Shown here in pieces: positions 42,930 to 43,641 of a stretch of DNA of 64,000 nucleotides (its first letter is position 1; every line of letters starts with the position of its first letter). The DNA comes from a virus: the IMG/VR virus record IMGVR_UViG_3300034198_008895, positions 99,395-163,394 of that record. One strand, 5' to 3'. The position numbers and the translations under genes are program-made. Under the pieces are notes generated by a model that made no database searches, had not been told where the DNA came from, and worked only from the letters and a program-made list of their open reading frames with translations.

Positions 42930-43641
42930 TAATACTATCTCGCGGACTGGTTCACTTACTTGTCCTGTTACTATCCTGTATATTGGTTCATTGATGTGGT
43001 ATGCTACTATCGGGCAACTTGATTCCAATCGATGTTTATGATACTAACACTTAAATGTTTCACTGCCTTCTTTTGTTACAATCGTTCGCGATGGTTCACT
43101 CTCCTAAATGTTACTTTCATTGGATGTGGTTCGCATTCATTTCTTGCTACTGGTCCATCAAGTGGCTCATTCGTATAACTCTGTTACAGTCATGACTTAT
43201 GATTCACTTTCCTGTTTATGATACTTTCTACACTTATGGTTCGTTCTGTGAAGATGGTACGCTCTCCATAAATGACTCACACAACTTCATTGAAACTGAT
43301 TGACGTGCAGGTTCACTTCCGCTTAATGTTACTTTCAGTAATGCTGGTTCATTCGAGTATGCTGATACTAACGCTGGAATTGATTCACTTACCTCCTAAG
43401 ATACTATCTTTATAATGAGGTTCACTCGCCGAAAAATGTTACTGACAACATGTAGGGTTCAAACGAAAAATATGGTACTCATTCTTAACATGTTTCATTT
43501 TATTTCATTGATACAATCTCACGAATTGATTCACTCAAGCTTGCTGTTACCGATTCGAGCTTAGGTTCACTTTTGTATTCTGTTACTGTCGGTAAATATG
43601 GTTCATTCGTTTCCAGTGGTACTATCTCGAATATTGATTAA
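42930..43641 (-). repeat. TIGR-type dual-repeat guide-RNA array, ~20 units of 36 nt
   Basis: + strand TGGTTCA-like motif at 42948, 42984, 43020, 43056, 43092, 43127, 43163, 43200, 43237, 43273, 43309, 43345, 43381, 43418, 43455, 43491, 43527, 43563, 43599, 43635, alternating with TGTTACT-like motif at 42930, 42966, 43002, 43039, 43074, 43109, 43145, 43182, 43219, 43255, 43291, 43327, 43363, 43399, 43437, 43473, 43509, 43545, 43581, 43617; unique 10-12-nt segments between; no ORF. Confidence 0.9.

Follow-up and report, generated by a model that had tools for sequence, protein, structure and literature searches.

Here, we describe an array in a large phage that probably encodes the guide RNAs of a dual-repeat TIGR-TasA system. 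The window, i.e., the whole stretch of DNA that was analyzed, comprises 64,000 nucleotides (nt), positions 99,395 to 163,394 of IMG/VR virus record IMGVR_UViG_3300034198_008895. The array covers ~730 bases of its minus strand and adjoins tasA, a gene for a Tas-family protein, beginning 31 nt past the tasA stop codon. We put the probability of this reading at about 90%; it is supported by the Tas-family neighbor, recognized by both sequence and fold, and by the published hallmarks of such arrays. An initial annotation of the window had proposed two alternating short repeats, one at the edge and one in the loop of a pseudo-symmetric guide bound by a protein dimer, and this description amounts to a TIGR array. 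According to the published papers, the main open questions about TIGR-Tas systems are the natural targets of their spacers and the way in which arrays change. Because the phage record is long and six sister arrays have been sequenced, both questions become approachable here; among the constant guides, one has a match at a conserved position in nuoA, the leading gene of the complex I operon.

The description of TIGR-Tas systems dates from 2025 (Faure et al. 2025, PMC12045711). Dual-repeat TIGR arrays are defined by two alternating repeats of 8–12 nt, spacers of ~9 nt, and units of 36 nt. Their first edge repeat is truncated at the 5′ side, their last is truncated at the 3′ side and followed by a terminator, and divergent box motifs that co-vary are allowed (PMC12045711). 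TasA binds 36-nt tigRNAs, the spacers of which pair with opposite strands of a single site; dual-repeat systems cut their transcripts with a C-terminal Tyr/His loop in the Nop domain. MbTasA has been reported to repress transcription in a guide-dependent manner (Xu et al. 2026, bioRxiv 10.64898/2026.09.09.750476). The TIGR-TasA class is already known, with 4,126 dual-repeat arrays listed by TIGRFinder, and the locus described here belongs to the dual-repeat class. None of the defining features tested at the locus failed: it has a Nop-domain effector, two alternating repeats, truncated end repeats with a terminator, and an array adjacent to the effector gene, and it lacks RuvC and HNH.

The motif chain consists of 41 short repeats, 21 edge-type and 20 loop-type in strict alternation, which delimit 20 two-part guide units with 40 spacers. 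The edge repeat has the consensus RARTGAACCA and the loop repeat GAYAGTANCA. Base autocorrelation across positions 42900–43700, measured against 500 shuffles, gave the peaks expected by the initial annotation at lags of 18 nt (z 5.7) and 36 nt (z 7.3), with further peaks at 54 nt (z 3.1) and 72 nt (z 5.4). The periodicity is therefore far above that of shuffled sequence, although calling it “strict” slightly overstated the case: neighboring repeats are 18 nt apart in 32 of 40 instances, 19 nt apart in five, and 17 nt apart in three, and the register shifts by +2 nt from end to end. One 17/19-nt pair, at 43029–43065, corresponds to a pair of compensating 10- and 12-nt gaps that had been placed near 43027–43055. 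The repeats had been drawn as 7-mers preceded by biased bases. The bias is real, but the three bases preceding each 7-mer carry 0.3–1.4 bits of position-wise information, meaning that the repeats are 10 nt long and the spacers 8 nt (range 7–9). Within the edge repeat, G4, A5, and C8 are invariant; within the loop repeat, G4 and T5 are invariant, and C8, A9, and A6 are each kept in 19 of 20 copies.

The two ends of the array settle which repeat is which, a question that the initial annotation had left to RNA mapping. The first copy of the TGAACCA-type repeat retains just its 3′ part, and the last copy just its 5′ part before the terminator, which makes it the edge repeat and leaves AGTAACA as the loop repeat. 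Degenerate terminal edge repeats followed by a terminator are likewise found in the sister arrays. All 40 spacers are distinct, as had been claimed. By contrast, the proposal that three related segments record unit duplication and divergence does not hold up, since spacer similarity is within the range of shuffles (three pairs sharing at least six of eight bases, versus 4.0 expected); the segments are three A spacers plus the GAT that opens the loop repeat. Spacers A and B of the same unit likewise show no palindromic or direct-repeat relatedness above shuffles. No second array is present in the 163-kb record.

Short and degenerate, the repeats escape repeat finders; as anticipated, Tandem Repeats Finder reported nothing at the array. 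It could be argued on these grounds that the stretch is not a guide array but a CRISPR array, a translated repeat of 12 amino acids, or a decaying relic. We regard this as barely credible. The repeats are 10 nt long and of two kinds, and no Cas1 was found anywhere in the 163-kb record by a search that was positive for control genomes; the record has no reverse transcriptase either, which extends to its full length what had been stated for the window. Translation is disfavored by 19–22 stop codons in each sense frame, consistent with the earlier view that there is no open frame (across all six frames, no open stretch exceeds 54 codons). Moreover, the guides are under purifying selection, as described below, and the layout of tasA, hairpin, array, and terminator is retained in all relatives beside the same helicase gene.

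The TasA protein is a member of the Tas family. A phmmer search matched it to TasR (PDB 9mty) with E 7.9e-7, and a profile of 40 sequences matched TasR (E 1.5e-12), TasH (E 1.3e-6), and the IS621 bridge recombinase (E 1.6e-3). When an AlphaFold (AF2) model (pLDDT 86.5) was compared with known structures using Foldseek, the top 11 matches were all cryo-EM chains of TasH or TasR (E ~4e-6), with IS110-family recombinases ranking after them; the best was TasH of Salicola phage CGphi29 (E 4e-6, TM 0.56, ~20% identity in the fold alignment). The alignment to TasR starts past TasR residue 107, i.e., after the RuvC part, and just ~25 residues precede the helical domain of TasA. The N-terminal RuvC or HNH part is absent, and the protein is classed as TasA for this reason; Pfam returned no family for it, and no nuclease family. 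Two long helices in the model (residues 26–55 and 61–87) would, by our own assignment, correspond to the coiled coil of TasR. The C-terminal loop is ~23 residues long; across 40 homologues, His285 is strictly conserved and Gly284 and His287 almost so, and this GH motif aligns with the GH of TasR. The family is large, with 4,034 homologues, some with PF02371. A tblastn search with TasA returned a single weak match, in Mycobacterium phage Rich, and megablast of the locus against phage records returned none.

Two other labels for this protein were considered and rejected. An IS110 bridge-RNA transposase would be expected to have a DEDD RuvC-like domain, but the protein has no N-terminal domain; the match to IS621 is weak (E 1.6e-3 by profile, E >0.1 by Foldseek), and in place of a single bridge RNA the locus carries 20 guides in tandem. 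The PHROGs label “transposase” (phrog_4285) is a misnomer for the Tas family.

The features of the locus are collected in Table 1. Together, tasA and the array would form one transcription unit, comprising a promoter-like site, tasA, a hairpin, the 20 guide units, and a terminator. The preceding gene has its own terminator at 44657–44680, just before the promoter-like site, and a motif that the initial annotation had regarded as a phage promoter also falls at ~44620. The leader hairpin is found at the same place in every sister locus (L007, L011, L015, L017, L018, and L009), with stems of different sequence (e.g., CACCC/GGGTG, CAGAC/GTCTG, and AACCTC/GAGGTT); these were read from the individual sequences, because a consensus-fold alignment set the stems out of register. 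Given that it has no U-tract, the hairpin may serve in processing or stability instead of termination. The intrinsic terminator that closes the unit is present behind every sister array. A search of the locus against Rfam yielded only sub-threshold chance matches on the terminators.

Table 1. Coordinates of the tasA-array locus, three of its guide units, and neighboring genes (positions in the window)
Feature	Position	Strand	Basis
Probable dual-repeat TIGR array, 20 tigRNA units	42913–43644	−	Periodicity, motif chain, information content
First edge repeat, 5′ part degenerate (agcttAATCA)	43635–43644	−	Motif chain
Last edge repeat, 3′ part degenerate (AAGTGttata)	42913–42922	−	Motif chain
Unit 6: spacer A TACATGTT (43447–43454), spacer B TTTTTCGGC (43428–43436); B plus reverse complement of A, TTTTTCGGCAACATGTA	43428–43464	−	Motif chain; frozen in sister arrays
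Unit 7: spacer B TAGGAGGT (43391–43398), Shine-Dalgarno-like; B plus reverse complement of A, TAGGAGGTTTTATAATG	43391–43427	−	Motif chain, sister arrays
Unit 10: edge AAGTGAACCT, spacer A GCACGTCA (43301–43308), loop ATCAGTTTCA, spacer B ATGAAGTT (43283–43290)	43283–43318	−	Motif chain
tasA, 293-residue nuclease-less Tas (Nop-domain) protein	43675–44556	−	Translation, homology, fold
Promoter-like site TTGATT-16-TATAAT upstream of tasA	44618–44645	−	Consensus scan
Leader hairpin between tasA stop codon and first edge repeat, 11-bp stem, no U-tract	43642–43666	−	dG −21.9 kcal/mol, z −5.8
Intrinsic terminator closing the tasA-array unit, 16-pair stem and T-run	42876–42913	−	dG −20.9, z −5.4
Divergent DnaB-like helicase	41282–42823	−	PF20307, E 8e-98
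ATP-dependent DNA ligase	39316–40269	−	Neighboring gene
Pyrimidine-dimer glycosylase	45702–46214	−	Neighboring gene

From published relatives, we infer how the system would work, covering processing, dimer binding, two-strand pairing, and repression. The transcript would be cut within the edge repeats into RNAs of ~36 nt, each held by a TasA dimer. One protomer would recognize the edge repeat by a box D-like G and a box C-like CCA, and the other would recognize the loop repeat by its G ... NCA. The two 8-nt spacers would then pair with opposite strands of one contiguous DNA site of 16–17 bp, such that one strand of the target reads as spacer B followed by the reverse complement of spacer A. 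Since this TasA has no nuclease domain, it would bind its target without cleaving it, forming a roadblock and repressing transcription.

Several points weigh against the TIGR-TasA reading. First, the loop repeat opens with AG rather than UG and closes with NCA rather than CCA, making the pair more dissimilar than in TasR arrays; comparing the edge repeat UGAACCA with the loop repeat AGUANCA, the G and the C(A) are shared, and the U and the first C are not. Second, no conserved Tyr of the published Tyr/His processing dyad was identified in the C-terminal loop among the 40 homologues. Third, expression of the locus and processing into 36-nt RNAs are presumed from relatives, and DNA binding and repression from other TasA proteins that have only the fold in common with this one.

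How the array changes can be seen from six distinct sister arrays, which lie beside TasA proteins 88–97% identical to that in the window, in the same tasA-array-helicase synteny. In each sister array, 6–11 of 20 units retain at least one identical spacer. When units are anchored on one identical spacer, the partner spacer differs at 0.6–4.9% of positions; by comparison, four-fold degenerate sites in tasA differ by 34–45% between the sister phages, loosely conserved repeat positions (0–3 and 7) differ by 30–39%, and a neutral 8-mer would be expected to stay identical in ~2% of cases. The retained guides, about half of the total, are therefore under strong purifying selection. Identity has a bimodal distribution among the 92 pairs of aligned units: 56 agree at 15–16 of 16 positions, 12 agree at 10–13, and the rest lie near the random mean of 4.4. 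The intermediate class includes units with one half kept and the other changed. For example, unit 12 has a constant spacer A and a variable spacer B, and unit 7 has the same spacer B in all seven arrays (that of the window and those of L007, L011, L015, L016, L017, and L018), while its spacer A is replaced. Combined with spacer A of this phage, the unit 7 target resembles a ribosome-binding site followed by ATG.

Changed units are found both within the array and at its ends, with no CRISPR-like polarity. This runs counter to the polarised gain or loss of spacers for which a comparison of related phages had been suggested. More distant arrays, beside TasA proteins of 80% and 75% identity, have no unit in common with the one described here. 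A scan of metagenomes for close relatives found one at 89% identity, on a contig that stops 181 nt past the TasA match, which leaves room for the start of an array at most. Two of the sister loci, L015 and L018, come from one sequencing run (ERR7015328); their TasA proteins are ~90% and ~97% identical to that of the window and their arrays differ, so carriers of different guide sets co-occur in one sample. Since about half of the guides are constant despite 34–45% neutral divergence, their targets must be stable sequences, at odds, for those guides, with a fast immune memory of the CRISPR kind.

The guides are asymmetric with respect to strand. Counted over distinct spacers (91 A and 94 B), C exceeds G in spacer A (skew −0.10) and G exceeds C in spacer B (skew +0.16; Fisher p 0.0016). 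The strand that reads as spacer B or the reverse complement of spacer A is G-rich across all guides and rich in GGA/AGGA, with 32 occurrences of GGA versus 6 on the opposite strand. A symmetric dimer offers no RNA-based reason for a difference between A and B; the skew is as expected if the two spacers read one sense-like strand from opposite sides. We infer the target order, spacer B followed by the reverse complement of spacer A, from the description of strands in PMC13421893 and from the match of unit 10 to nuoA, which is contiguous in exactly this order. The opposite order gave no matches wherever it was tried; for unit 10, that order is TGACGTGCATGAAGTT.

Unit 10 supplies the most specific candidate for a natural target. 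Its 16-mer, ATGAAGTTTGACGTGC, is frozen in all six distinct sister arrays, with a single change in L017 (GCACATCA). In a bacterial genome collection, it has at least 120 exact matches; among the 120 listed, 101 are at one site in nuoA, encoding ...ARMKFDVRYYL..., on the sense strand, and they span beta-, alpha-, and gamma-proteobacteria. The site lies at nt 159–162 of a gene for a PF00507 protein of 118–119 residues, with intergenic DNA upstream, and nuoA is the first gene of the complex I operon. Of 60 further genomes from the same order as the Variovorax genome, three contain the 16-mer, either exact or as the GAT variant, versus none for a backwards control and ~0.18 expected by our estimate. 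The GAC-to-GAT change in L017, the only variant of unit 10 in the sister arrays, is synonymous in the nuoA frame, and both variants are found in genomes. A second frozen guide, unit 6, matches the RLFGNMY site of atpB (PF00119) on the sense strand with 1–2 mismatches. In three genomes there is only one mismatch, and in one of these it falls at the 5′-most spacer base; a mismatch at the 5′-most base of spacer A is tolerated in TasH (PMC13421893).

These matches raise the possibility that the frozen guide core steers TasA to conserved sense-strand sites in host genes such as nuoA and atpB (which encodes ATP synthase subunit a), shutting down their operons during infection. The purifying selection on the guides fits stable targets of this kind. 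Both sites are on the sense strand, and the target strand of the guides as a whole is G-rich. However, no genome is known to hold several of the targets, and the closest relative of the helicase is from a Bacillus phage. Other guides give no comparable signal: units 3, 14, and 18, scanned against five proteobacterial genomes, and units 13 and 16, scanned against 60–100 genomes from the order of the Variovorax genome, are at chance level. Even unit 6 has 13 matches versus 8 for its control in 301 genomes, only three of them in atpB. Several guides have a GC content of 19–25%, incompatible with an origin in GC-rich coding DNA. In addition, the significance of the nuoA match leans partly on a rough, uncomputed estimate that well under 1% of random 16-mers would match a widely conserved gene site. 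A near-match of unit 15 in nuoD was rejected, since the guide would read an in-frame stop codon (TAG) and the count is within chance. We therefore treat host-gene silencing as a lead, not a finding, and one with the odds against it; the chance that nuoA is a real target is roughly one in three.

A second possibility, which we consider rather unlikely, is that the guides bind DNA of co-infecting related phages, e.g., at promoters, while mismatches allow the carrier's own genome to escape. The 20 guides of the array have no site in their own record, and the variable units turn over among sister phages, two of which, as noted, occurred in a single sample. If the 5′-most base of each spacer is ignored, guides from sister arrays match the phage record twice, against 0.27 expected from 11,433 mis-paired decoys, with no match in the other spacer order. 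A guide of L015 (spacers TTCAGTTT / ATATATAG) agrees at 15 of 16 bases with an intergenic site at 13505–13520 (−), which overlaps a promoter-like motif, CATATATA, that the initial annotation had counted twelve times; the one mismatch pairs with the 5′-most base of spacer A. The other match, by a guide of L010, is in a phrog_3239 gene, and the 42%-complete L010 record has no homologous gene with which to assess self-avoidance. Two matches correspond to P ~0.03 with a core that was defined after seeing them, and they are suggestive only. Scans of a viral collection found 13 contigs with unit 10, 58 with unit 3, and 14 with unit 18, but no contig was related to the phage and none was matched by several guides. 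Moreover, frozen guides suit stable targets better than an arms race. The 58 viral contigs with the unit 3 16-mer, GCAAGCTTTCGAGCTT (L063–L120, IMG/VR), include ~25 from one related family with the same conserved coding context, for which a genuine target and redundancy of the collection are both possible.

A third possibility is self-regulation, in which the guides would be directed to promoters or gene starts of the phage itself. The ribosome-binding-site-like target of unit 7 speaks for this, as do the ATG triplets in units 4, 10, 13, and 14, and the target of unit 14, AGAAATGACCATCAAG, coincides with one of the phage's own gene starts with two mismatches. Yet the phage's own record has no site below two mismatches in either spacer order, and the six sites at two mismatches compare with ~3.4 expected by our estimate. 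Nor is there an exact pair of half-sites within 60 nt in the record, versus 1.35 for mis-paired controls. With the record rated 82% complete, this absence falls short of proof, but we judge self-regulation to be quite improbable. The unit 14 match lies outside the window, at G000:C1:45928-45943 (−) of the phage record (G000), and covers the ribosome-binding site and start codon of a gene for a 260-residue protein read as dCTP-deaminase-like; matches of this kind are within chance in number, yet this one falls exactly on the gene start.

The proposal that draws these observations together is a selection-frozen, multiplexed silencing system, in which unit 10 (nuoA) and unit 6 (atpB) would block host respiratory and ATP-synthase operons while the faster-changing guides would be aimed at rival phages. 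We advance it tentatively, as an account that is possible but more probably wrong than right. If it is correct, natural targets would be assigned to a TIGR system for the first time, and the target geometry, spacer B and the reverse complement of spacer A in contiguous order, would be fixed from natural data. If the nuoA match holds, TasA would be a natural CRISPRi-like phage tool for reprogramming host energy metabolism; if it fails, the locus would still serve as a clean, fully delimited reference for a phage TIGR-TasA unit. The guide/target pairs are open to direct testing. Potentially new points are the signs of purifying selection acting on a core set of guides, a turnover of whole and half units that shows no polarity, and the candidates for natural targets.

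The tasA-array unit sits among genes for replication and repair (Table 1), and the order of tasA, array, and helicase gene is conserved in all relatives down to 75% TasA identity. The phage record is linear, 163,394 bp long, with a GC content of 37%. Its helicase is closest to that of Bacillus phage vB_BspM_AgentSmith (62%), followed by those of jumbo phages of Burkholderia, Ralstonia, Pseudomonas, and Erwinia (31–38%).

Among known systems, FpTIGR-TasA of Flavonifractor plautii (PMC12045711) resembles the phage locus in having a solo, nuclease-free Nop effector with the array downstream of its gene, alternating edge and loop repeats in 36-nt units, truncated terminal edge repeats, and a terminator. 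The phage array differs in that its spacers are 8 nt rather than 9 nt long, with three loosely conserved linker bases, its loop repeat has AG...NCA rather than UG...CCA, and its carrier is a large phage of the lytic type. SpTIGR-TasH of Salicola phage CGphi29 (PDB 9w03, 9w04, and 21kl; PMC13421893) is likewise phage-borne and dual-repeat, with 8+8-nt spacers (16 variable nt), but TasH has an N-terminal HNH nuclease and cuts DNA, whereas the phage TasA has no nuclease domain. TaTasR (PDB 9mty), the structural reference for tigRNA recognition, is the best match by sequence, and in both systems, apart from the NCA of the phage loop repeat, a G in the box D position and a box C CCA bracket each spacer; TasR, however, carries a RuvC domain and uses 9-nt spacers. 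MbTasA and the inactive TasR repressors of Xu et al. (2026) are nuclease-free, bind DNA, and repress transcription, which is the mode proposed for the phage TasA. The nuclease-dead TasR proteins in that study belong to stem-loop guide systems that lack the C-terminal processing loop, and the proteins were tested on artificial targets, with no natural target reported. Lastly, nuclease-free CRISPR systems (type IV and type V-M) also place on a mobile element a guide array that acts by binding rather than cutting. The phage locus differs from these in having no cas gene and 10-nt repeats of two kinds, instead of one repeat of 25–36 nt; each of its guides consists of two 8-nt spacers that would read opposite strands, with no PAM and no acquisition genes known.

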